Below, piece by piece: positions 2,492-54,100 of a DNA stretch of 57,609 nucleotides (its first letter is position 1; each line of letters opens with the position of its first letter). The notes beneath the pieces were generated by a model, which worked only from the letters and a program-made list of their open reading frames with translations, made no database searches and had not been told where the DNA came from. The position numbers and the translations under genes are program-made. This DNA is from a candidate division WWE3 bacterium CG_4_9_14_0_2_um_filter_35_11. GTDB lineage: Bacteria; Patescibacteriota; WWE3; 2-01-FULL-39-13. Location: assembly GCA_002789015.1 (NCBI GenBank), contig PFSJ01000018.1, forward strand, positions 1-57,609. The letters are read 5' to 3'.

Positions 2492-2981
2492 TCCACTATA
2501 TACGCTTGCTGATATTCTTGTTGCCCTTCATCTGCTGGTTGTTTTTTTATACATATTTGTAAACCACAAAAATAAGGTTTTGGATTATTTATTTTCTTTA
2601 CTTTTGACGGTTGCATTATCTGAAGGATTGAAATTTTTTATTGATAAACCACGCCCTGTTTTGGAACTTGAAGGCGGGAGCTTTCCATCTACTCATACAG
2701 CAGTTGCATTTAATGCTGCTTGGTTTGTTTTATTTGCTTGTCATACATTGTCAAAACATCAAAATAGGGAAGGTAAGTGGTTCTTGTTGTTGAATAAATT
2801 TGAAAGTATGACAAAAAAACAGTTTTTAAGCATAATATTTGCCTTCGCCTTTGTGATTGGAGCATTAAGGGTTCTCTCAGGGGTGCACTATATAATAGAT
2901 GTAATTGCTGGAGGTTTATTTGGATTATTAACTGCTGTGGTATTTAAATATTACGACGTTAGTGCTAGGAAATTAAAATGA
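2484..2981 (+). CDS. PAP2-family (type 2 phosphatidic acid / polyprenyl-diphosphate) phosphatase
   Basis: All three PAP2 motifs are present: KFFIDKPRP, PSTH, SGVHYIIDV. Polytopic membrane protein. Confidence 0.8.
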   Translation: MINPLYTLADILVALHLLVVFLYIFVNHKNKVLDYLFSLLLTVALSEGLKFFIDKPRPVLELEGGSFPSTHTAVAFNAAWFVLFACHTLSKHQNREGKWFLLLNKFESMTKKQFLSIIFAFAFVIGALRVLSGVHYIIDVIAGGLFGLLTAVVFKYYDVSARKLK

Positions 2982-3811
2982 CGCTCACCCAGTCGGTTAT
3001 ACTTGGAATTACACAGGGAATTACAGAATTTTTACCTATTTCATCATCTGGGCATTTAATCTTGGTTCCAGCAATGTTTGGCTGGGAATTACAAGACTTA
3101 AGTTTTGACGTGGCGTTACATTTAGGAACTGCAATTGCAGTTTTACTATATTTTTGGAGGGACTGGTTTGACATGTTAATTTCATTGAAATTAGATGTCA
3201 TTGATTTAGTATCTGGAAAACTCCACGGTATGCACACATTACGACATCCCGCTATTTTGCTTTTTACATTGATAGTTGTTTCTATTCCTGTGGGATTAAT
3301 TGGATTCCTTTTAGAAAGTACAGTTGAGGAAACTTTCAGATCCCCTATTTTTGTATCATTTATGCTTGTCATAATATCCTTTTTCATGTTTTTTGCAGAT
3401 AAATATTCTGATGTACGAGAAAAAAAAGAAAAACTTAATTTCATTGATTATTTAATTATTTCATTAAGTCAAATTGTGGCATTATTTCCTGGATCATCAA
3501 GATCAGGAATGTCAATTTCAACTGGGCTTTTTCGCGGGCTTGACCGCGAAAAAGCCGCTAAATTTTCTTTTTTACTTGCAACACCAATAATCCTTGGAGC
3601 AAGTATTGTAAAACTCCCCGATTTATTTTCTTCACCAAGTGATCAAATCCAAATCATGCTAATTGGGCTTGCCACTTCTTTTATTACGGGAATGATTTCC
3701 ATCAAGTGGTTGATGTTTTTTTTGAAAACTAAAAGCCTAAAGGTTTTTGTTGTGTATCGCATTTTGTTGGGAGCGGTTATCCTGATACACTACTTCAGTT
3801 ATGCTATCTAA
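2978..3811 (+). CDS. uppP: undecaprenyl-diphosphate phosphatase (BacA/UppP)
   Basis: ITEFLPISSSGHL and SRSGMSISTGLFRGLDREKAAKFSFLLATP signatures. 277 aa, multi-TM. Confidence 0.9.
   Translation: MTLTQSVILGITQGITEFLPISSSGHLILVPAMFGWELQDLSFDVALHLGTAIAVLLYFWRDWFDMLISLKLDVIDLVSGKLHGMHTLRHPAILLFTLIVVSIPVGLIGFLLESTVEETFRSPIFVSFMLVIISFFMFFADKYSDVREKKEKLNFIDYLIISLSQIVALFPGSSRSGMSISTGLFRGLDREKAAKFSFLLATPIILGASIVKLPDLFSSPSDQIQIMLIGLATSFITGMISIKWLMFFLKTKSLKVFVVYRILLGAVILIHYFSYAI
3525..3556. other. perfect 13-bp stem / 6-nt loop hairpin inside uppP
   Basis: GGCTTTTTCGCGG gcttga CCGCGAAAAAGCC, every pair verified by hand. It lies over the conserved RGLDREKAAKF coding region. Confidence 0.85.
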
Positions 3812-6332
3812 GTTAATTGGACGATTCACAAATAATAATGAAAATAAGCTTTCAAATATAAAGTCTATTGTTTCTGAAATAAATGAACTTGAATCAAAAT
3901 ATAAAAAGTTTTCTGACGAGGAGATAAAAGCTCAAACTATAAAATGGCAAAAACATTTAAGAAGTGAAAATTTCTCTTCGGATGAGGTTTCAAAATATCT
4001 TGATGCGATTTTACCTGATGCATATGCAATGGTGCGTGAAATAGCAGTTAGAAAGATGAGCCAACGTCATCGAGATGTTCAGATTTTGTCTGGAATTATT
4101 TTGCATCAAGGTAAAATCGCCGAACAAAAAACTGGTGAAGGAAAAACTTTGACTGCAACACTTCCCCTTTATCTTAACTCTTTGACTGGAAATGGTGTTC
4201 ATCTTGTAACTCCAAATGATTATTTATCAAAACATGGCGTTGGTTGGTATGGACCAATATTTGAAGCTCTAGGAATTAATGCGGGCGTTATTGTTCATGA
4301 TTCTGCTTTCGTTTACGATCCTTCGTACGATTCTCAAGATTCTATCGATACATATTCAAGACATTTAAAGCCTTGTTCACGAAGTGAAGCTTACAAGTGT
4401 GATATTACTTATGGGACAAATCACGAATTTGGTTTTGATTATTTGAGAGATAATATGGCTGTTTCTAAAGAACAGATAAGCCAGACTAATCCGAATGAAA
4501 ATTATGGTAAACATTTTTTTGCGATTGTTGACGAAGTCGATTTTGTTTTGATAGATGTCGCAAGAACTCCATTAATTATTTCCCAACAAAAGGATTTGCG
4601 ACCAGACAGGTATTATCAATTTGCAACGCTTTCAAACGAGCTTGTTCCAAATACTGACTATGATATTGATGAAAAATATAAGACGGTAACAATGACTGAA
4701 CTTGGAATTAATAAGATAGAAAGAAAGCTTGGTGTAAAAAATTTGTACGAAAATGATTTTGAGACAGTTCACCATATCGAAAACGCATTAAGAGCAAAAG
4801 AGCTTCATGTTAAAGATAAGGATTACGTCGTAAAAGATGGCAGGATTATTATTGTAGATCAAAACACAGGTCGACTTTTAGATGGAAATCGCTGGAGCGA
4901 TGGCTTGCATCAAGCTGTTGAAGCAAAAGAAGGTTTGGAAATTCAGCCAGAATCAAAAACTGTCGCAACAATTTCATATCAAAACTATTATAGGCTTTAT
5001 GAAAAACTCGCCGGAATGACAGGAACTGCAATGACTGAATCTGAAGAGTTTTTTAAGATGTATAGTCTTGATGTCGTTTCTATTCCAACTAATAAACCGA
5101 TAAAAAGGCTTGACCAATCGGATGTAATTTATAAAACTCAATCTGCAAAATTTCGAGCAGTTGCAAATGATATTGCACAGAGGAACAAGCTTGGTCAGCC
5201 GATTTTAGTTGGTACAACTTCGGTAGAGAAATCACAGCTTCTCTCTGGTTTCCTAAAAAGGCTTAAAATTCCACATGAAATACTAAATGCAAAAAACAAT
5301 GATAAGGAAGCAGGCATAATTGCTCAAGCAGGTAAAAAAGGATCAGTTACGGTTTCTACGAATATGGCTGGTCGAGGCGTTGATATTATTTTGGGTGGAG
5401 ATCCTTATAGTGAAACAAACTACAATAACGTCGTAAGTTCAGGGGGACTTTATGTCATAGGTACAGAGCGTCATGATTCAAGAAGAATTGATAACCAATT
5501 AAGAGGAAGAGCTGGACGACAAGGTGATGTCGGAGAGTCTAGATTTTATATGTCTTTACAAGATGACCTACTTCGAATCTTCGGCGGTGAAACTATTGAA
5601 TCATTTATGAATAAGATGGGAGTTGATGAAAATCTTCCTATCGAGGCAAGGCTTATTTCAAAATCTATTGAGAATGCTCAAAAGAAAGTTGAGGGTATGA
5701 ATTTTGATCAACGTCGAAGTATTGTTGATTATGACGACGTTATGAATGTTCAAAGAGAGTCTATATATAGTATGCGAAGAAGGATTTTGTTATCAACTCC
5801 CGGCGAGAAATTTTTTGATTTCATTTTAGATAAATTATCAACTTATGTTGACGATGATTTTGCGAAGGTTTGGGTTTCAAAAAATCAAAAATATGGAGAT
5901 GAGCTTTGGCATGAGGTTGTAAAAAGAGTTTCTCTGGAAGTTATCGATGTTTTATGGATGGATCACATTGATTTGATGGATGATTTAAGAAGTGGAGTTA
6001 GGCTTCGTGGATATGGACAGGTTGATCCGTTGGTTGAATATAAACGTGAAGGTAGACAAAAATATGAAGAGCTTATGATTCAAATTTGGTCGACTATTTC
6101 AGATCGGCTTTTAAAAGTTGAAGTTCAGGTTGAAAAAAGACAAGAAGTCAGAGAATCTCCAATCGACAAAGGAAACATAGATTACAAACAAGGCAACTTT
6201 GAAAGCGGAGTCGCAAATGAAGTGCAAGGCTTGATCTCCGATGACTCCGCTAATAAAAAAGACAAACCTGGAAGAAACGATTTATGCTACTGCGGAAGCG
6301 GAAAAAAGTATAAAAAGTGTCATGGCAAGTGA
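3801..6332 (+). CDS. secA: preprotein translocase ATPase SecA
   Basis: Walker A AEQKTGEGKTLTATLP, VDEVDFVLID, TNMAGRGVDI, and a C-terminal zinc SEC-C motif CYCGSGKKYKKCHG. 843 aa. Confidence 0.95.
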   Translation: MLSKLIGRFTNNNENKLSNIKSIVSEINELESKYKKFSDEEIKAQTIKWQKHLRSENFSSDEVSKYLDAILPDAYAMVREIAVRKMSQRHRDVQILSGIILHQGKIAEQKTGEGKTLTATLPLYLNSLTGNGVHLVTPNDYLSKHGVGWYGPIFEALGINAGVIVHDSAFVYDPSYDSQDSIDTYSRHLKPCSRSEAYKCDITYGTNHEFGFDYLRDNMAVSKEQISQTNPNENYGKHFFAIVDEVDFVLIDVARTPLIISQQKDLRPDRYYQFATLSNELVPNTDYDIDEKYKTVTMTELGINKIERKLGVKNLYENDFETVHHIENALRAKELHVKDKDYVVKDGRIIIVDQNTGRLLDGNRWSDGLHQAVEAKEGLEIQPESKTVATISYQNYYRLYEKLAGMTGTAMTESEEFFKMYSLDVVSIPTNKPIKRLDQSDVIYKTQSAKFRAVANDIAQRNKLGQPILVGTTSVEKSQLLSGFLKRLKIPHEILNAKNNDKEAGIIAQAGKKGSVTVSTNMAGRGVDIILGGDPYSETNYNNVVSSGGLYVIGTERHDSRRIDNQLRGRAGRQGDVGESRFYMSLQDDLLRIFGGETIESFMNKMGVDENLPIEARLISKSIENAQKKVEGMNFDQRRSIVDYDDVMNVQRESIYSMRRRILLSTPGEKFFDFILDKLSTYVDDDFAKVWVSKNQKYGDELWHEVVKRVSLEVIDVLWMDHIDLMDDLRSGVRLRGYGQVDPLVEYKREGRQKYEELMIQIWSTISDRLLKVEVQVEKRQEVRESPIDKGNIDYKQGNFESGVANEVQGLISDDSANKKDKPGRNDLCYCGSGKKYKKCHGK

Positions 6333-10866: not shown

Positions 10867-12280
10867 GGAATTAAGCAATCAAGAAATTCAATTTAAAAAT
10901 TCAAATTCACAATATAAAGAAGGCTTTCACATGCCCGATTCGAGTACTAATAAATTTAAAATGGGCTTGAATGAAGATGTTGTAAGAAATATTTCAAAAT
11001 TAAAAAATGAACCAAAGTGGATGTTGGATTTTCGGTTGAAATCTTATGGCATTTTCATGTCCATGAAAATGCCAGATTGGGGTGCTGATCTTTCTGGAAT
11101 TGATTTTGGAAAAATTCATTATTATGTTAAGCCTTCTGATAAGCAAGAAGTTTCTTGGAATGATGTTCCCGATGACGTTAAAACCACATTTGATAGATTA
11201 GGAGTTCCACAAGCAGAGAGGGAATTTTTATCGGGTGTAAAAGCTCAATATGATTCAGAGGTTGTTTATGGATCGTTGATTAAGGAAATGTCAGAAAAGG
11301 GAGTTATTTTTTTGGGAACTGATGAGGCTTTAAAAAAATACCCAGAGTACTTTGAGGAATATTTTGGAAAAATTATAACTCCTGCTGATAATAAATTCGC
11401 CGCTTTAAATAGTGCTGTTTGGTCAGGCGGATCTTTTATTTATATCCCAAAAGGAGTTTCAATTACGAAGCCTCTTCAAGCATATTTTAGAATTAATGCC
11501 GCAAATATGGGCCAGTTTGAAAGGACTTTAATTATTGCAGATGAAGGTTCTTTTGGACATTATGTTGAAGGATGTTCGGCCCCAGTTTATACGTCAGCTT
11601 CATTGCATTCAGCAGTTGTTGAGATTGCTGTTAAAAAAGGTGCAAGATTTAGATATACGACAATCCAAAATTGGTATAGCAATGTTTATAATCTTGTTAC
11701 AAAAAGAGCGTATGCATATAAAGATGCAACTATGGAGTGGATTGATGGAAATATTGGGTCAAAGGTCACGATGAAGTATCCTTCTGTTTATTTGATGGAA
11801 GAGGGCGCAAGAGGTGAGGTTTTGTCATTAGCTTTTGCAGGTGAAGGACAGCATCAAGATACAGGAGCGAAGATGGTTCACCTTGCGCCGAATACTTCTT
11901 CTAATATTATTTCTAAGTCGATTTCGAAAAAGTCAGGGCGCGCAAGTTATCGAGGGCTCGTCAAGGTTTCCAAAAAAGCAACGAATGTTAAATCAAATAT
12001 TGTTTGTGACGCACTTTTGCTTGATCCAGAATCAAGAACAGATACTTATCCATTTATGAAGATTGATAATAAGCATGTGAAAATTGGTCACGAGGCAAGT
12101 GTTAGTAGATTGGGAGCAGAGCAGCTCTTTTATTTGATGAGTCGGGGCCTTTCTGAAGAAGTTGCGTCTGCTTTGATTGTGAATGGTTTTATTGAGCCGA
12201 TCATAAAAGAGCTGCCGATGGAATATGCTTTGGAATTAAATCGTCTTATTGAATTAGAAATGGAAGGATCTGTTGGATGA
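10853..12280 (+). CDS. sufB: Fe-S cluster assembly scaffold SufB
   Basis: 475 aa. [56 protein letters not shown]. Confidence 0.9.
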
Positions 12281-12810
12281 TCAAGCTCGAAATAGGAAAA
12301 GGCTATGAAAAAGAAAAAATAATTGTATCCAAAAACGAGGAAATTTATGTTGTTGGAAATTCCGGCGGAAGCTTGGATTTAGAGGTTATTTTAGAAAAAG
12401 AAGGTGCGTCAGCAAATATCTATGGAATCGTTATTGGACGGGGTAACGATTCCTACAAGATAAGAACTACAAGTTTTCATAATGCTCCAAATACAAATTC
12501 AAGAGTTCATTTAAAAGGTGTTTTTATGGATTCGTCTTCTATGGATTTTTTTGGAATGATAAATATTGATAAAGTTGCACAGCTTTCAGATGCTTATTTG
12601 AAAAATGATAATTTGATGATTGGCGAAGATTGCAGAGTTAATTCTTCTCCTCAACTTGAAATTAAAGCCGATGATGTGAAGGCTTCTCACGGTGTTACAA
12701 TTTCAACAATTGATGATGAGCATATGTATTACCTGATGTCTCGTGGGATTTCATTTTCAGATTCTAGGGATCTTCTTATCGAAGGTTTTATTAACGAGAT
12801 TAAATTATGA
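12277..12810 (+). CDS. sufD: short SufD-like protein (C-terminal beta-helix core only)
   Basis: [15 protein letters not shown]..., [34 protein letters not shown]. Only 177 aa. Confidence 0.75.
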
Positions 12811-30630: not shown

Positions 30631-31911
30631 ATGAATATTGTTGTAATATCAAGGTCTACAAACGCACATTTTATATCAGGCGGAATGGAAACTCAATTAA
30701 AAAATCTACTCGAAGGTTTAGTTGACTTAGGTCATAAAGTATTTGTAATCACAACTTCTTATCCATTAGATGGTGAAATCTTTAAGGAAAACAAATTGGA
30801 AAAAATAAACGGAGTTGAATATTTTTATATCGGTGATACAACTTCTGGCCTTTTGCCCTTGTCTTTTATTGAGTTCCCGTGGAAGTTATTAGGCATTTTG
30901 GATCGTGGAAATAAAAAAGAAGGAAGTAAGAATTTTTTCGAAGAAAGTCTAAAAGTTTTTAATGAACAAAATGCAAAGAAAAAATTCGATATAATAATTT
31001 CTCAAAGTACTGGGGCATATGGCATCGCGGGGAAGACAAATCTACCAATAGTCTCAATATCGCACGGAACGATTACTAATGAGATAAAAAATAGATTAAA
31101 AACATTAAGGACCTTAAAGAATTGGTTTAGATTTCTGTTAATTGACTTGCCAAAATCGGAATTAGAATTATTAATGTCAAATCGAAAGTTTTATGAACAG
31201 GCTTCATCGATTGCTTGTGTCAGTAATATTTTAAAATCGCAATTTCTAGAGGAATATTCAGGGGATCAAAAAAAACGTATATCAAAGAAAACCACAGTTA
31301 TTTACAATGGCGTTGATTCGGATAAGTTTTCTCCATCAAAAGAAATAAACGATAAATTTAAGGTTTTGTATGTTGGAAGAGTCGATAGAGAAAAAGGAAT
31401 TGATCTGATTATAAGGGCAATGTCTGAATTGAAATCGCGTAAACTTGATATTTCAGCTGATATTATTGGTGGAGGAATCGAGGAAGCTGATTTAAAGAAT
31501 TTGGCAACGTCTCTTGATGTTTCAGATAGAGTCAAATTCTTGGGCCAAGTACAAAATGATAAATTAACTAAGTATTATAACGAAGCGAGCTTGTTTGTGT
31601 TTCCAAGTAGAAGATTAGAGGGTCAGCCTATGACGGTTGTTGAATCTTTCTGCTCTGGGCTCCCGGTAATTGCGACAAGATCTGGTGGGCTTTCAGAAAT
31701 AATTGAGGATGGCGTTAACGGAGTTTTCGTCGAATCAGAAAATTACATTGATATTGCAGATAAGGTTGAGGCGCTTTTTGTAAACAAAAAGCGCCTGATT
31801 GAAATGTCAAAAAACGCTAGGATTTCGGGCTTAGAGAAATTCAGTAAAGTTTCGATGGTGAAAAGTTATGAAAAGTTGTTAGAATCATTAAGTAATGGAA
31901 AAGGAAACTAA
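30631..31911 (+). CDS. GT4-family glycosyltransferase
   Basis: GGMETQLKNL, YVGRVDREKGIDLII, PSRRLEGQPMTVVESFCSGLPVIATRSGGLSEII. Confidence 0.85.
   Translation: MNIVVISRSTNAHFISGGMETQLKNLLEGLVDLGHKVFVITTSYPLDGEIFKENKLEKINGVEYFYIGDTTSGLLPLSFIEFPWKLLGILDRGNKKEGSKNFFEESLKVFNEQNAKKKFDIIISQSTGAYGIAGKTNLPIVSISHGTITNEIKNRLKTLRTLKNWFRFLLIDLPKSELELLMSNRKFYEQASSIACVSNILKSQFLEEYSGDQKKRISKKTTVIYNGVDSDKFSPSKEINDKFKVLYVGRVDREKGIDLIIRAMSELKSRKLDISADIIGGGIEEADLKNLATSLDVSDRVKFLGQVQNDKLTKYYNEASLFVFPSRRLEGQPMTVVESFCSGLPVIATRSGGLSEIIEDGVNGVFVESENYIDIADKVEALFVNKKRLIEMSKNARISGLEKFSKVSMVKSYEKLLESLSNGKGN
31769..31796. other. perfect 12-bp stem / 4-nt loop hairpin inside a GT4 gene
   Basis: AGGCGCTTTTTG taaa CAAAAAGCGCCT, pairs checked by hand. 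It encodes part of EALFVNKKRLI. Confidence 0.85.
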
Positions 31912-45717: not shown

Positions 45718-47251
45718 CAAAATTAAAAATTTACCAACGACTCTTTATATATTTTTGTTTGCTTTTTTGTATCGCTTGCCATCTTTGGGCGTGGATTTTA
45801 TAAATAACGATGCATTTTTATGGAAAAGTAGAAGCTACGAATTCGGAAAAGCTTTGATGTCATTAGATTTTGCGAAAACTGCTGTTACGTATCATCCCGG
45901 AATTCCTCTTTTGTGGAGCCAATTTATAGCAATAAAAATTTATTCGCTTTTAGATTTTCTCATATATAAAGGGGTGCTATCTCCGAACGCTGAATTTATT
46001 ACAAACCACATTATTCAAAAAACAGTTTTAGTTTTTTTTACTTCTGTATTAGTTGCTTTAGCATTCTTCTTACTCAAAAAAATAATTGGTCAAAGATCTT
46101 CGATTCTAGTAATTATGTTTGTTCTTTTGGAGCCTTTTTATTTAGGTCTTTCAAGAGCAATCCATACAGATACCATGATTTCACTTTTCATGTTTATCTC
46201 GTGTTTATACTTTTATATCGCATTTTCTAAAGACAACATAATTGAAAGAAATGGTAAAGAGGCGATTTTATCTGGTGTTTTTATAGGTTTGGCAGCTTTA
46301 ACAAAAAGCTCTGCATTATTTTTAATTCCATTTTATGTTTTGGGATACCTAATTTTAAGAAGGTTTGATTTTTCTGAAATAAAAAAATTATTAATTGTTT
46401 ATCTATTTTTTATATTAAGTTTTTTTGCTTTTTGGCCTGCCATGTGGGTAAATCCAGTCGGGTCCTTAAATCTTTACCTATTTAAGGGAGTTGAAGGGGT
46501 GGCCCTCGAAGAGGGCCACGGACATATATGGTTTGGTGTAGAAACACTTGATCCGGGTCCACTTTTTTATCCGATAGCGTTTGTTTCTCGGTATTCAATG
46601 TTTATGGTTTTGATGTTTGTATTCGGGATTTATTTTTCAATTAAAAATTTTAAAAGAAAGTACAAGTTCAACATTAACCTTATTTATTGGTTTGCCTTTA
46701 TTGCATTCTATTTTTTGATGTTGACTTTTGTTTCAAAGAAGTTGGATAGATATCTTCTTCCTATAACTTTTCCAGTTGCTATTTTTTCTGTATATTGGAT
46801 TAGAAATTACTTTTCTAAAAAAGTTTTGGCCCTAATTTTTTCACTTTTTGTTTTTGGTAGATTTGTAATTTTATTTGGCCTACATCCGAACTATTTGGCT
46901 TATTACAGTCAACTAGTTGGTGGAATGGAAAATGGAAGAACTTTGATTGAACCTAAATGGTTGATTGCATATGATAAAGTCGCACTATTTTTTAATAGTG
47001 ACGATGAACCAGAAAAAGTAAAAGTTGCGATCGCCGATTTTGATTATTTAAGACCATTTGCGAAATTTGAGGTTTTGAATATAAGAGTAGAAGAGGAGCG
47101 CAATAAAGCTGATTATTTTGTTTTGCCAGTGTATAGGGAAGAGCGAAATAAATTTTATCTTGATAGCTATAATTTGGAAAAATTAAATGATGTGATAACT
47201 GTTTCAGGCGTAGAGTATTATCAAATTTATAAAAGCCGAGGCAAAAAATAG
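45683..47251 (+). CDS. GT-C-fold membrane glycosyltransferase (PMT_2-like); paralog of 35276..36982
   Basis: 522 aa. NNDAFLW...TYHPGIPLLW, SRAIHTDTMISLF, GLAALTKSSALFLIP. Confidence 0.7.
   Translation: MEIQYMYTQVINKIKNLPTTLYIFLFAFLYRLPSLGVDFINNDAFLWKSRSYEFGKALMSLDFAKTAVTYHPGIPLLWSQFIAIKIYSLLDFLIYKGVLSPNAEFITNHIIQKTVLVFFTSVLVALAFFLLKKIIGQRSSILVIMFVLLEPFYLGLSRAIHTDTMISLFMFISCLYFYIAFSKDNIIERNGKEAILSGVFIGLAALTKSSALFLIPFYVLGYLILRRFDFSEIKKLLIVYLFFILSFFAFWPAMWVNPVGSLNLYLFKGVEGVALEEGHGHIWFGVETLDPGPLFYPIAFVSRYSMFMVLMFVFGIYFSIKNFKRKYKFNINLIYWFAFIAFYFLMLTFVSKKLDRYLLPITFPVAIFSVYWIRNYFSKKVLALIFSLFVFGRFVILFGLHPNYLAYYSQLVGGMENGRTLIEPKWLIAYDKVALFFNSDDEPEKVKVAIADFDYLRPFAKFEVLNIRVEEERNKADYFVLPVYREERNKFYLDSYNLEKLNDVITVSGVEYYQIYKSRGKK
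46499..46519. other. perfect 9-bp GC-rich stem / GAA loop inside a GT-C gene
   Basis: GTGGCCCTC gaa GAGGGCCAC, encoding VALEEGH. Confidence 0.85.
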
Positions 47252-48819
47252 TGAAAAAGGATATTTTGATAATTCTTGCGATTTTTCTGTTTTCTTTTGG
47301 TTTTAGATTGTGGAACATAACGAAACACTTTGAAGTTTGGGACGAAACCGCGGTTGTTAGGGTCGGGGAAATCTATATTAATTCAATTAAATCTCTTGAT
47401 TTTAGTGAAAATACATGGAAATTAAATAAGGAACATCCGCCTTTTTCGAAATATTTTTATGGAGCATCAAGAATCGTTACTTTGAATTCTGATTATTTAA
47501 GCAATAATATTGATCAGGATTTTCCACTCGGAAGAAGATATTCATTACAAAGAATCTTAAGCGCTTTTGTTGGCTCTATTACAATTGTTCTTTTATATAT
47601 ATTGGCAAGTAAGTTCTACAATTCGAAAATTGCATTGATATCAAGCCTTATATTATCTTTGACGCCCCATTATTTTGCACATAGCAGAGTTGCAACCCAA
47701 GAGAATTTTGTTTCCTTTATGACTTTAGTCACAGTTTGCTTTTTCTTTTTTGCATTACGTACACGAAAACTTAAACATCGGTTTTACATTATCTCTGGAG
47801 TTTTGTTAGGACTTTCAATTGCAACAAAATATAACTCACTTTTCTTTTTAGTATTGTTTTTACTTCTCACTCTGTCTGAGTTTGGTCGTCGTTTTTTAAA
47901 ATCAAGATTCTTGATTTTAAAAAACGACCTAATTTTAATTCCATTTTTAGCTTTAGGAACTTTCTACGCTGTTTGGCCGTGGCTTTGGCCAGATCCAGTT
48001 GGAAGATTTTTATCAAGCGTAAGTCGTATAAATGGTTCAAGATATTTCGAATACTTTTTAGGACAATTTCCATCTCCGCACTCTTGGTATTATTTTTTTG
48101 TTTATTTATTTGCTACAACGCCCCCAATTATTTTGCTTGGAGTTTTCCTTTTTGGGATTAAATTCATATTCAAAAGGGGAAAATACGATTTTTGGTTTCT
48201 GATGTATTTTTTAACGCCATTAATGGCTACGTTTTCACCTCTTAAAATGGATGGCATAAGATATATATTTCCAATATATCCTGCAATGGCAATTATTTCT
48301 GGAGTAGGATTTTATTTTCTAATCGATATTTCCGGAAAATTTATAGATTCGACATATAAATCAATTGTTGAATTTGCAACTCCAGTTATTGTATTCGGAA
48401 TACTTTTTATGACGATACTAATATATCATCCATTTTATTTCGATTACTATAATATATTTTTTGGAGGCCCATCAGGAGTTTATAAAAACCGATTATTTGA
48501 TTTTGGTTATTGGGGAGAAGGATTAAGAGACGGCATGAATTTTATATATAAGGAGGACCCAGATATTAGAAAGAAAGTATATCTTAAGATTTTACCAGTG
48601 CACGTATTGCCACCTTATAAAAATAACACTGTATACGTTGATGAAATTGAGAAAGCTGACTACGTGATAATAAATCCTGCTGGAGAGTGGTTAAATCAGA
48701 CAAATTATCTTGATTATGATTTTCCATACAATTTTGATATCGTATTTGAGGAAGCATTGATGGATGCTCCGATTGTTCAAGTTTATAAAAGGAAGTTTCC
48801 GTATATCGGGAAATTATGA
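47251..48819 (+). CDS. GT-C-fold membrane glycosyltransferase (PMT_2/ArnT-like)
   Basis: GTG start overlapping the upstream TAG (TAGTG). WDETAVVRVGEIY ... NKEHPPFSKYFYG, SRVATQENF, GLSIATKYNSLFF. Confidence 0.72.
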   Translation: MKKDILIILAIFLFSFGFRLWNITKHFEVWDETAVVRVGEIYINSIKSLDFSENTWKLNKEHPPFSKYFYGASRIVTLNSDYLSNNIDQDFPLGRRYSLQRILSAFVGSITIVLLYILASKFYNSKIALISSLILSLTPHYFAHSRVATQENFVSFMTLVTVCFFFFALRTRKLKHRFYIISGVLLGLSIATKYNSLFFLVLFLLLTLSEFGRRFLKSRFLILKNDLILIPFLALGTFYAVWPWLWPDPVGRFLSSVSRINGSRYFEYFLGQFPSPHSWYYFFVYLFATTPPIILLGVFLFGIKFIFKRGKYDFWFLMYFLTPLMATFSPLKMDGIRYIFPIYPAMAIISGVGFYFLIDISGKFIDSTYKSIVEFATPVIVFGILFMTILIYHPFYFDYYNIFFGGPSGVYKNRLFDFGYWGEGLRDGMNFIYKEDPDIRKKVYLKILPVHVLPPYKNNTVYVDEIEKADYVIINPAGEWLNQTNYLDYDFPYNFDIVFEEALMDAPIVQVYKRKFPYIGKL

Positions 48820-49943
48820 ATAAAAAAAGATTGTTGATGTGTTATCACTCATCAGAATATGGTGGAGTAGAAAAACAAATACTAGATATTATAAAAGGGC
48901 TTTCTGAAAAGATTGAAATTATTGTGGTTTGTCCAGAAGGTCCAATGGTAAAGGAATATTTAAGTGGCGGGGCGATAAAGCATATTGCTTTATCGCCCCG
49001 CCATGAAGCGGATTTGCAGTATGCACTGCAAATCCGCCAACTCATAATTCTAGAAAAAATAGATATCGTACATTCTCATGAACTTTTAACTGGATCTCTT
49101 GCAACTTTTGGTGGGTGGCTTGCTTCATTTAGAAAACCTGTAAAAAGAATTTATCATGTTCATACACCTTTTTCTTGGTGGAGACACAATTTTCTCAAAA
49201 GTTTACCAGCACTTTTCATAAATACATTTGTTAATTTTATTGTCGGTAATATTTTTGCAACGGATGTTTTAGCACTTACTCCATCTATTAAAAGACATAG
49301 AATATTTAATGAATTTATCTCTCCAACAAAAATCAGAGTACTTCCAAATGGAATTGAGAATGAGTACTTCAGTTTTTCGCAATTACAAAGAAATTCCTTT
49401 AGAAAAAAATGGCGCATTCCAGTTGACACATTTGTTATAGGAAATATTTCTCGTTTTACAAAGGAAAAAGGTCATGAAGTTTTAATTAACGCTTTTTCAC
49501 AAATTAAGAAACAAAATCCAGGTAAGAATATGCTTTTGCTTCTTGCTGGTGGAGGAATTCTTTTAAACGAGATAAAGTCTTTATCTAAAAACCTTGGTAT
49601 TTATGAAAGTGTAATTTTTACAGATCAATTTTTAGAATCGGATAAGATTGGAATATTATCTTCAATTGATTTATTTGTATTTCCATCCTATGCCGAAGGC
49701 TTTGGAATTGCTATTCTTGAATCAATGTCTATGGGAATTCCTACAGTAGCTTCTAACCTACCTGTATTAAAAGATGTTGGTGGCGATGCTGTAATTTATG
49801 CGAAAACAGGAGATCCCAGCGATTTTGCGGCTAAAATGAGGGCTATCCCTGATGTTTCATCAGGGGTAGCCCTCCTAAAAAGGGCCGAAGTCTTTTCGAT
49901 GCGAAATTTCATCAAGAATTATTCAGGCCTTTATAACCTATGA
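48816..49943 (+). CDS. GT4-family glycosyltransferase
   Basis: EYGGVEKQILDI, IDIVHSHE, ISRFTKEKGHEVLI, PSYAEGFGIAILESMSMGIPTVASN. Confidence 0.85.
   Translation: MNKKRLLMCYHSSEYGGVEKQILDIIKGLSEKIEIIVVCPEGPMVKEYLSGGAIKHIALSPRHEADLQYALQIRQLIILEKIDIVHSHELLTGSLATFGGWLASFRKPVKRIYHVHTPFSWWRHNFLKSLPALFINTFVNFIVGNIFATDVLALTPSIKRHRIFNEFISPTKIRVLPNGIENEYFSFSQLQRNSFRKKWRIPVDTFVIGNISRFTKEKGHEVLINAFSQIKKQNPGKNMLLLLAGGGILLNEIKSLSKNLGIYESVIFTDQFLESDKIGILSSIDLFVFPSYAEGFGIAILESMSMGIPTVASNLPVLKDVGGDAVIYAKTGDPSDFAAKMRAIPDVSSGVALLKRAEVFSMRNFIKNYSGLYNL
48965..49037. other. twin GC-rich perfect hairpins inside the GT4 gene
   Basis: Hairpin 1 (48965-49003): GGCGGGGCGATAAAGC(a) tat (t)GCTTTATCGCCCCGCC, a 16-17 bp perfect stem plus an outer T-A pair. 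Hairpin 2 (49008-49037): GCGGATTTGCAGT atgc ACTGCAAATCCGC, a 13-bp perfect stem. Confidence 0.9.
49838..49874. other. 17-bp stem (one G-T) / TTT loop hairpin carrying the GGGCTAYCCC core, inside the same GT4 gene
   Basis: GAGGGCTATCCCTGATG ttt CATCAGGGGTAGCCCTC. It is followed by CTAAAAAGGGC, which resembles the spacer-plus-repeat start of the sufS element. Confidence 0.85.
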
Positions 49944-51124: not shown

Positions 51125-54100
51125 ATGGATTACATAATGCTCCTCCCAGCTTTAGCAATTTTCATACTGTCTTTTATTTTAGGAATCAAAAATTTAAGAA
51201 TTTCTTTTCTACTTTTAATAATTTTGACGCCTTTAGTTCATAAAGAGTTATTTAGCCTTGGTGGAATTTGGGATTTGCTCCCTATTAGAGTTGCCTTCGG
51301 TGGTATCGCTTTATCTTCTGTTTATCATTTTTTTGTTTGGGCAAAAAAAGCAGGTTACAAAAGATTTTTACATTCGAGTTTAGAGGCTTTGAAAAAAGAT
51401 CCATTTTTAGTTTTGCTTTTATCTTTGTGGCTGCTTCGACTTTTATGGATCAAAAAATCAGCTTCTTTTGACGAAAGTTTTAAACTGTACATTTTTTATT
51501 CTTCAATTGTTGGCATTTATTTTATTTTTAGAAATTTATATGAAAAGCATGGGTTGAAATTTATAAGAAAGTCTATTGATCTTTATTTAGCCATGGGCTT
51601 TTTTGCGGCCTTAATTGCTGTTTTGCAATTTTATTTAAGGATTTGTTGCAGGTTTAGCGTTGGAGGAGTTTGGGTTGTCCCAGGTTATACTCCTCGTCTC
51701 GGCTCGACTTTTTGGGATGTAAATCATTTTGGCGGTTATTTAGTAACGATGATTCCTATTTTATTTGCAATGTTTTTCATGAAGCACAAAAATAGGTTTG
51801 CTAAATTTTATTACCTTTTTTCAGCATTTTTCCTGTCTGGAATTTTATTTTTCACTCAATCTAGAAGTTCGTGGATGGGACTTGCGGTTGGACTTGGTTT
51901 ATCCTTATTCATATATTATTTTTCAAGTTTAAAAAAGATTTTATATTCGTTTGCGATACTTGTATTAGTCGGAATTGTAGGACTTTTATCGTACACAACA
52001 TACAAACATATTTCCATAAATGAAAAGGTTGCTTCTTTTATGCACTACAGACTTGATTCTACTGACACACATATGCTTCTTTTAGACGGCGCAAGTGAAG
52101 TTTATTTTGATAACTTTTTGATTGGTGCTGGGTATGGAAATTTTGATCACGCATTTAGAGGTACGCCAATATCGGATATCTATTTTAATAGGGAGCCAAA
52201 ACTTAAAGAGATGAAAGTTCCACCTCATAGTGTGTGGGGCGAAGTTTTAGCAGAAACAGGATCAGTAGGTATGACTTTATATGCACTTTTTGCAGGTCTT
52301 ATTTTGGCAAGCCTTGTTGTTTCAATCTTTACGTCTAAATCAAATGATGTGAAATATTTAGGCACTGGTCTTCTTGGTGGCGCCGTTTCCATATTTGTTG
52401 CTGGACTATTTTATTCTTACAATATGGAATTTTATTGGATTTATCTTTTTATATGTATCGGGTTTTCTATTATGACAATTGGTAAGAATCGGAATTTACC
52501 TTATGTTCTAAATTGGTGGTCTAAAAATCCGATTACACCATATTTGATAATCTTGCCTATTTCAGCTTTTTATATTTTCATAAGACTTGGTTCTACGACC
52601 TTAATTGATTGGGACGAAGCCATTTATGCAAAAGTTGCAAAAAATATTGTTTTATCTAACGATTGGTTGACTTTGCATTGGACGGACATGAAAGACTATT
52701 GGTTTGAAAAGCCACCATTTTATATGTGGCTTACGGCTTTAGCATTTAAGATTACAGGATTTAATTCATTCGGTGCAAGAATAGTTTCTGCCACTTTCGG
52801 GATTTTTGGAATAATGGCAACATATAAATTAGGAAGTAAACTTTACAACAAACTAACAGGTATTACTGCATCGTTGATTTTGTTATCAACCGCTCATTAT
52901 TTGTACTATTCACGAAATGGAATGTTAGATGTCACAGCAACATTTTTTATTGTGTTGTCGATATTCTATTTTTATAGAGGGCTGTCGTTGAGCGATAAGC
53001 GAAACGCAGCCCTCATAAGCTGGCTCCTTTCGGGAGCCAGCATCGGCTTCGCCGTTATGACAAAGGGAATCATTGGTTTTATACCACTGCCAATTATTTT
53101 TATTTATTTGTTGGTTTTAGATATAAAAAATCTCAAAAAATATTTGAAACCATTTTTATTCATTGTAATTGGTATTTTATTAATAGCAGGGCCATGGCAT
53201 ATTTACTCATTGATTAAATACGGGAATGATTTCTGGGATACATATTTTATTGATCACATGATTGGTCGTGGACTTTCTGGTTTTGGTCACGAGAAACCGG
53301 TTTTGTGGTTTTTAGATGTAATAAGGACTTCATTTAGAATTTGGATTCTGCCACTTTTTGGTGCTTTGGTTTTGCTTCCATTTTTTGATAAGGATAGAAG
53401 GCAGTATTATCTTCTTCTGATTTCTACTTTTTTTGTTTTAATTTTCTTTTCGGTATCAAAAGATAAATTGCAGTGGTATATAATGCCGATTTATCCGTTC
53501 ATTGCTATTTTGTCTGCACGTTTTATAGAAAGATCTATATATATTCTTAATTCATTTTTAAGAAGTGAAATAAGGTTTGATAATAAATACTCAAGAATTT
53601 TATTAGTATTTTGTGCTTCTTTAGTTGCCATTTTCTATGTAGTAATTATCCGAGATAAAGTTTATTTGTCCGATTTCAATAAGGACAAGGTCGCATTGGT
53701 AGAGATAAATAATAAGAATTATCCAATTGAAGACTATCCAGATCGAAAATTATATTTCAGTAGAATTGAACCTCCTGTGTTGCGTTTTTATAGCGATCAT
53801 GTTGTTAAGTCAGTTGATGAGCCAACTATTTTAAGAATGATAGACGATGCCGGGCCTTTAGAAAACTATAGCTTTTTGGTTCCAGATTCGGTCTATTATA
53901 AATTGCAAAGTAAGGGAGGCAGGATTAAGGCTCCACTAGTTTTAGACATTAAAGGTACGTCTGGAGGTTGGGTATTATTAAAATCTGTTTCTAGGGTAGA
54001 GCTATTGAGATCTCAACTTGAAACGCTCATGTCAAGACATAAGACATTTATTGATAGGTTGATATTGGGCGAAAAATTAACACTACTCGAAAAGATGGCG

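Follow-up and report, generated by a model that had tools for sequence, protein, structure and literature searches.

The N-domain of a GT4 gene in a groundwater WWE3 (Patescibacteria/CPR) bacterium carries two perfect hairpins, H1 and H2, in tandem. They are coding palindromes overlaid on an ordinary conserved stretch of a functional gene whose protein length is unchanged, and on balance they appear to have been born by template switching and locked by the coupling of codon phases. The window, that is, the whole stretch of 57,609 nucleotides that was analysed, is chromosomal and contains housekeeping genes (serS, uppP, secA, pyrD, sufCBDSU, prfB, and ftsEX) as well as a glycosylation run of about 20 kb, in which PMT/ArnT-like, GT4, and Wzy_C genes all lie on one strand, mostly with 4-nt overlaps. 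At its start the host GT4 gene shares 4 nt with the upstream PMT gene, and the hairpins are situated 150 nt into the gene; their placement in the N-domain by the preliminary description is correct. The locus consists of the following features.

Positions 48816–49943, + strand: host GT4 gene, intact, 375 aa, Glyco_transf_4 + Glycos_transf_1.
Positions 48965–49003, + strand: H1, an inverted repeat with a perfect stem of 18 bp and a TAT loop, TGGCGGGGCGATAAAGCA-TAT-TGCTTTATCGCCCCGCCA.
Positions 49004–49007, + strand: spacer between H1 and H2, in the region of the His63 codon.
Positions 49008–49037, + strand: H2, an inverted repeat with a perfect stem of 13 bp and an ATGC loop, GCGGATTTGCAGT-ATGC-ACTGCAAATCCGC.

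Direct reading bears out the perfect 13-bp stem of H2 and the perfection of the H1 stem, which had been counted as 17 bp and is in fact one pair longer. The 4-nt gap reported between the hairpins holds with H1 at 18 bp and becomes 5 nt (ATGAA) with 17 bp. A recount again gives 39 G/C among the 73 nt of the hairpin segment, against 31% in the 500-nt flanks, so that the segment is indeed G+C-rich in an A+T-rich background, and its in-frame translation within ORF 48816–49943 is GGAIKHIALSPRHEADLQYALQIR, as described before. H1 encodes (S)GGAIKH-IALSPR(H) and is a phase-1 coding palindrome, in which codon position 1 pairs with position 1 and position 2 with position 3; H2 encodes ADLQY-ALQIR and is a phase-2 coding palindrome. 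The antisense ORF at 48845–49045 also exists; the special explanation by palindromy that had been offered for it is not needed, because antisense ORFs of 50–130 aa are common in the window.

The stems are far beyond what chance would produce, as had been supposed. When perfect stems of at least 13 bp with a loop of at most 10 nt are counted over the whole window, six are found, compared with about 0.05 per dinucleotide shuffle. For a 93-nt stretch with both hairpins the folding energy is -58.6 kcal/mol for RNA (z = -12.2) and -40.5 kcal/mol for DNA (z = -12.7), and none of 200 shuffles of this stretch folds equally well. The codons of the H1/H2 block are rare and G+C-rich (GC3 0.54 versus 0.25), and their typicality falls in the bottom 0.2% of the window's 24-codon windows. 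The G+C richness of H1 arises largely because Gly-Gly-Ala codons pair with Ser-Pro-Arg codons in phase 1; selection for stability could be a contributor to the rare G+C-rich codons in both arms of H1.

H1 and H2 are real and not assembly artefacts. Both are present in three different assemblies of diverged strains (L001, L002, and L003), which differ by 12–18% in nucleotides and whose GT4 proteins are 88, 81, and 81% identical, respectively, to that of the window. The Logan contig of run X1 spans both hairpins with 0 differences. In other runs the contigs break here: in X2–X5, X19, X20, and X24 there are ends at 48972 and/or restarts at 48994–48996, points that are symmetrical about the centre of H1, in X6 the break runs from an end at 48959 to a restart at 48985, and in X21 from an end at 48979 to a restart at 49033, the latter inside H2. 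Altogether nine runs besides X1 have hairpin-broken contigs, including groundwater, soil, and lake samples of other studies. An NCBI MAG contig (L004, at its start) and a JGI contig (L050, at its end) also terminate at the hairpins. When a 101-nt hairpin stretch was searched in the runs, X1 alone held it complete, because the Logan contigs break at the palindrome, and a metagenome scan for close GT4 relatives yielded 2 loci only, one of them stopping at H1. For k-mer assemblers that meet a palindrome, such breaks inside the hairpins are the expected behaviour. An artefact of assembly, for example a palindromic chimeric join, was the one outcome said beforehand to refute the hairpins; for such an artefact, or one of amplification, speaks the exact coincidence of so many breaks with H1. 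This reading fails when checked against the three independent assemblies, whose strains carry identical hairpins in frame despite their divergence, against the exact spanning contig of X1, and against the intact reading frame and conserved residues; its probability is negligible.

A side effect of these breaks is visible in public assemblies, in which contigs end at H1/H2 and GT4 gene calls such as P0002 are truncated at the N-terminus, because k-mer assemblies break at palindromes. In practical terms, these palindromes break such assemblies at fixed points and thereby lead to truncated gene calls in public CPR MAGs.

Insertion of a mobile or repetitive palindromic element in frame (REP/BIME, Rickettsia-type RPE, MITE, or PATE) is very unlikely and is already contradicted by the evidence. 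The twin layout, the G+C-rich palindromes in an A+T-rich genome, and the 36-nt difference from L002 at another locus of the window (52977–53014) are in its favour. However, the 24 codons of the block (residues 51–74) align without gaps with 15 GT4 homologues, in which residues P61, E64, D66, and Y69 are invariant, so that both arms encode conserved residues and no length has changed. The suggestion that the segment is an insertion or replacement is not supported by this alignment, which holds in every homologue. RPEs are insertions of 100–150 bp that add peptide, are present in many copies, and decay over time. H1/H2 resemble RPEs and in-frame MITEs in that palindromic sequence is tolerated within ORFs; they differ from RPEs in adding no peptide, having no other known copy, and showing no decay, and the candidacy of an RPE or in-frame MITE insertion was rejected since there is no extra peptide relative to the orthologues. 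REP/BIME elements are extragenic, multi-copy, imperfect palindromes with a GTAG/CGTC head and an association with RAYT transposases (PMC3733652). The likeness that had been drawn to them extends to short G+C-rich palindromes that are sometimes paired, and REPs can act as mRNA 3' barriers. The distinguishing REP traits listed first are all missing for H1/H2. Both hairpins are intragenic, inside ORF 48816–49943, where they encode conserved residues; there is no GTAG/CGTC head; and within the window the arms have no match but themselves, nor is there a second copy in the viral contigs or in the 56 fetched loci outside the orthologous gene. Membership of the REP/BIME family was rejected on these grounds and the analogy does not hold.

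A different Patescibacteria MAG (RA.bin45; locus L011) contains five G+C-rich hairpins of one family (GGGCTGAGCCCG...) within about 1.8 kb, at 204–261 and 1684–1791. In contrast to the hairpins of the window, which are single-copy, these have the look of a genuine REP-like repeat family.

The hairpins are restricted to a narrow WWE3 clade. Within it, the H1/H2 region folds at -54 to -57 kcal/mol. In homologues at or below 60% amino acid identity the same peptide region is present, encoded by A+T-rich codons, and the fold is -6 to -16 kcal/mol; because these homologues encode the region without the structure, the hairpins arose in the narrow clade. The stems are frozen within the clade, apart from the terminal pair of H1. 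This conservation is documented by three full lineages (L001–L003) and, indirectly, by the contig breaks. H1 is identical in L001 (17 bp) and in L002 and L003 (16 bp plus a terminal G·T), and the one stem change is in the terminal pair, where the G-C of the window corresponds to G·T in L002 (G·U on the sense strand). All other variable sites of the block are limited to the spacer, in which CA is replaced by TT (His to Phe) in L002 and L003, and to the loop of H2, in which G is replaced by T (Ala to Ser) in L001–L003. No synonymous change is found among the 22–23 same-residue codons of the block, compared with 21–30% elsewhere (P = 4e-3 and 4e-4). At third codon positions, 24 of 24 sites agree with L002, versus 61% in the flanks (0.61^24 ~ 7e-6). 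Among the 72-nt windows of the gene the block is the one most conserved within the clade, and the longest invariant run of the gene, 36 nt, lies wholly in H1. The clade-specific residues L67 (TTG) and Q72 (CAA) pair together in H2 and represent a coupled double change; the ancestral F (TTT) and K (AAA) codons at these two sites were also capable of pairing. The freeze would be equally expected from selection on a functional RNA or DNA structure.

Other hairpins in the window, referred to here as siblings, are informative about how such palindromes are formed.

Positions 49838–49874, + strand: hairpin at the C-terminus of the same GT4 gene, 17 pairs with one T·G, phase 3.
Positions 47888–47928, + strand: 20-bp perfect palindrome in the upstream PMT gene, phase 1.
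Positions 11047–11074, + strand: 13-bp perfect hairpin in sufB.
Positions 46499–46519, + strand: 9-bp G+C-rich hairpin in a PMT gene, GTGGCCCTC-GAA-GAGGGCCAC, identical in L002 and L050.
Positions 3525–3556, + strand: 13-bp perfect hairpin in uppP (BacA).
Positions 31769–31796, + strand: perfect 13-bp hairpin in another GT4 gene, close to its 3' end.
Positions 52977–53039, + strand: second twin-hairpin locus (52977–53014 and 53021–53039) in a Wzy_C/PMT gene.

The hairpin at 49838–49874 is specific to the lineage of the window, and L001 and L002 are 6 nt shorter there, a gain on the side of the window; its second arm in the window, GGGTAGCCCT, is the reverse complement of the AGGGCTACCC carried by L001 and L002. 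An independent run, X5, spans this hairpin without differences and also confirms that at 47888–47928. At the latter site L002 has only a quasi-palindrome (MFE -8 versus -22 kcal/mol in the window), and the differences between the window and L002 in the PMT gene cluster at the hairpin. The stems of the sufB hairpin are kept in L055 (87% nucleotide identity), with the loop changed from TC to GA, and the hairpin is missing from the outgroup L056 and from all other SufB sequences compared. Relative to the outgroup, 7 of 13 positions are changed in the first arm of the hairpin (E to G, K to M) and 2 of 13 in the second, and the first arm is the exact reverse complement of the second, which encodes a conserved M-K-M-P. 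The mutation hotspots at quasi-palindromes in E. coli are products of template switching. Template switching has been described to create and maintain perfect hairpins (PMC8794818; Mönttinen and Löytynoja, 2022), and the siblings are like those cases in that clustered changes make one arm the exact reverse complement of the other. The sufB, PMT, and GT4 C-terminus siblings are template-switch footprints, at which the process is seen directly. The published cases and the reporter hotspots concern RNA genes and reporters, whereas the products in the window are protein-coding and are kept under a double constraint.

The second twin locus, with the sequence GAGGGCTG...CAGCCCTC followed by TGGCTCC-TTTC-GGGAGCCA, coincides with the length difference from L002 mentioned above (12 codons) and has the lowest codon typicality of the window. 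The polarity of this indel is ambiguous, given that homologues differ in the length of the loop, and no inverted or direct source for the 36 nt was found nearby. The recurrence of the twin layout may be no coincidence. Strong hairpins as a whole cluster at 46–54 kb, in glycosylation genes.

A GAGGGCT start and an AGCCCTC end are common to the hairpins at 49838–49874 and 52977–53014, and that at 46499–46519 has GAGGGCC and GGCCCTC. A GAGGGCY...RGCCCTC hairpin family was considered and dropped: the full pattern is present in two hairpins with one more related, there are no copies in other loci, and the 7-mer excess is accounted for by the hairpins themselves. The shared GAGGGC base may be a coincidence or a preferred switch site. 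The only hairpin flagged by the promoter/terminator scan was the palindrome at 47888–47928, which was called terminator-like (19 pairs, tail CTAATTTTAA) despite its mid-gene position in PMT.

The kind of pairing that is enriched also bears on the origin. The window holds 6 perfect hairpins versus 1 with a single mismatch, a small sample. Stems containing G·T are at the chance level (7 versus 4.65 ± 1.7), as are those containing A·C (2 versus 1.7). Because the excess is limited to perfect Watson-Crick stems, it suggests that the signal stems from copying of a DNA template, not from selection at the RNA level. The asymmetry of G·U on the sense strand was also considered as a test of RNA selection and discarded, since the count of 7 versus 2 is accounted for by base composition.

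Taken as template-switch products, H1 and H2 would have originated by replication template switching that perfected a quasi-palindrome: in the ancestor of the clade one arm would have been re-copied from the other, so that a perfect stem was made at a single stroke. The closest homologue that lacks H1/H2 is 60% identical, too distant to display the switch event for these two hairpins. Their persistence may be explained by the phases of the two palindromes. The third codon positions pair with second positions in H1 and with first positions in H2, and because of this phase-1 and phase-2 pairing a synonymous change breaks a pair, and the compensating change alters an amino acid. Any pairing pressure therefore freezes the whole block. 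This pressure could be recurrent correction by template switching or selection on the structure; that the rate of correction suffices to hold a palindrome against drift is an assumption. Non-adaptive, self-maintaining palindromes are ranked first, ahead of a secondarily acquired role in mRNA.

Such a role is possible, though doubtful. As a selected mRNA structure, the twin hairpins would be a cis-element embedded in the overlapping glycosylation genes, acting as a 3'-exonuclease barrier, as an RNase III or other processing site, or as a translational pause, and would set the levels of the upstream PMT genes relative to those of the downstream GT4 genes. The very stable fold described above (z = -12), the conservation of rare G+C-rich codons with all third positions frozen, and the tight 4-nt gene overlaps, which leave no intergenic space, are consistent with this, as is the fact that the single stem change, in L002, turns G-C into G·U on the sense strand. 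The 18-bp stem of H1 is compatible in length with the dsRNA stem of roughly 20 bp of an RNase III site. On the other hand, the window's own copy has no G·U among its 31 pairs, stems with G·U are not enriched over the window, where only perfect Watson-Crick stems are, and the siblings are at no consistent position in their genes and turn over between close lineages. The promoter/terminator scan called nothing at H1 or H2, and their tails, ATGAAGCG and CAACTCAT, have no U-tract, so that an intrinsic terminator, a G+C-rich stem with a U-tract behind it, was rejected. Likewise, an Rfam search of 46–54.5 kb at E values up to 1 gave no match at the hairpins; a weak rncO match at 53009–53161 (E = 0.6, below the Rfam threshold) lies away from H1/H2. 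Direct reading of the sequence upstream of H1 revealed no X XXY YYZ heptamer as a signal for -1 frameshifting.

A function at the DNA level is unlikely. The hairpins would then be sites of cruciform extrusion or of binding by a dimeric protein, with a signalling role in recombination, replication, or regulation at a locus for surface glycans. The strictly Watson-Crick complementarity would suit such a site, the A+T-rich centre of H1, clamped by G+C, favours extrusion, and the concentration of strong hairpins in the glycosylation genes at 46–54 kb agrees with it. Nevertheless, no sequence motif is common to H1, H2, and the siblings, the possible GAGGGCY base is present in only two or three hairpins, and the ORFs of the window that were scanned included neither a recombinase nor an HUH nuclease.

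It can tentatively be suggested that in gene-dense CPR genomes, where overlapping genes leave no space between them, perfect hairpins born by template switching are co-opted as cis-regulatory elements inside coding sequence. If this is true, the co-opted hairpins would be operon-internal signals for mRNA processing, stability, or pausing, or DNA structural signals, and H1/H2 would be a conserved dual-coding element that tunes expression in a surface-glycosylation operon.

H1/H2 are statistically strong, but features of their kind have been described before. Nearest to them among known phenomena are the coding palindromes in the mitochondria of Nematomorpha, in which both arms are coding and perfection is all-or-none (PMC6649704; Mikhailov et al., 2019). 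These palindromes prefer phase 1, are gained and lost dynamically, and have an unknown function, and conversion or template switching has been proposed to maintain them (PMC6649704). H1/H2 share with them perfect inverted repeats within coding sequence, conserved residues in both arms, and an unchanged gene length, which is the defining combination of the Nematomorpha type, and the window hairpins as a group share the atypical codons of the arms, the gain and loss between relatives, and the all-or-none perfection, given the small sample of 6 perfect stems against 1 with a single mismatch and the chance level of wobble stems. As regards the phase-1 preference, the cases are few: H1 (18 bp) and the 20-bp palindrome at 47888 are in phase 1, H2 is in phase 2, and the hairpin at 49838 (17 bp) is in phase 3. 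The Nematomorpha palindromes are mitochondrial and have stems of up to 284 bp, whereas those of the window are on a bacterial (CPR) chromosome, measure 13–20 bp, and number a few per 57 kb. A further difference is that H1/H2 are documented as frozen across diverged strains. The locus is thus a clean bacterial example in which perfect hairpins coexist with a conserved protein and are still perfect across strains that have diverged by 12–18% in nucleotides. It offers a tractable case for the question of whether palindromes are held by structural selection or by self-correcting mutation, with template switching as a drive.

Comparison with related contigs also revealed differences elsewhere in the window. 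The uppP gene (2978–3811), situated between a PAP2 gene and secA, is missing at the same place in the related contig L055 (469–1184), which has a small reverse ORF instead. L055 also has additional DUF4365 and KilA-N genes between secA and pyrD (3732–5361). The presence or absence of uppP and the extra genes of L055 are strain-level indels. The sufD-like ORF at 12277–12810 is short (177 aa) and matches just the C-terminal part of the SUFBD core; since the versions in L055 and L056 are 184 and 182 aa, respectively, the short form is conserved in the clade.
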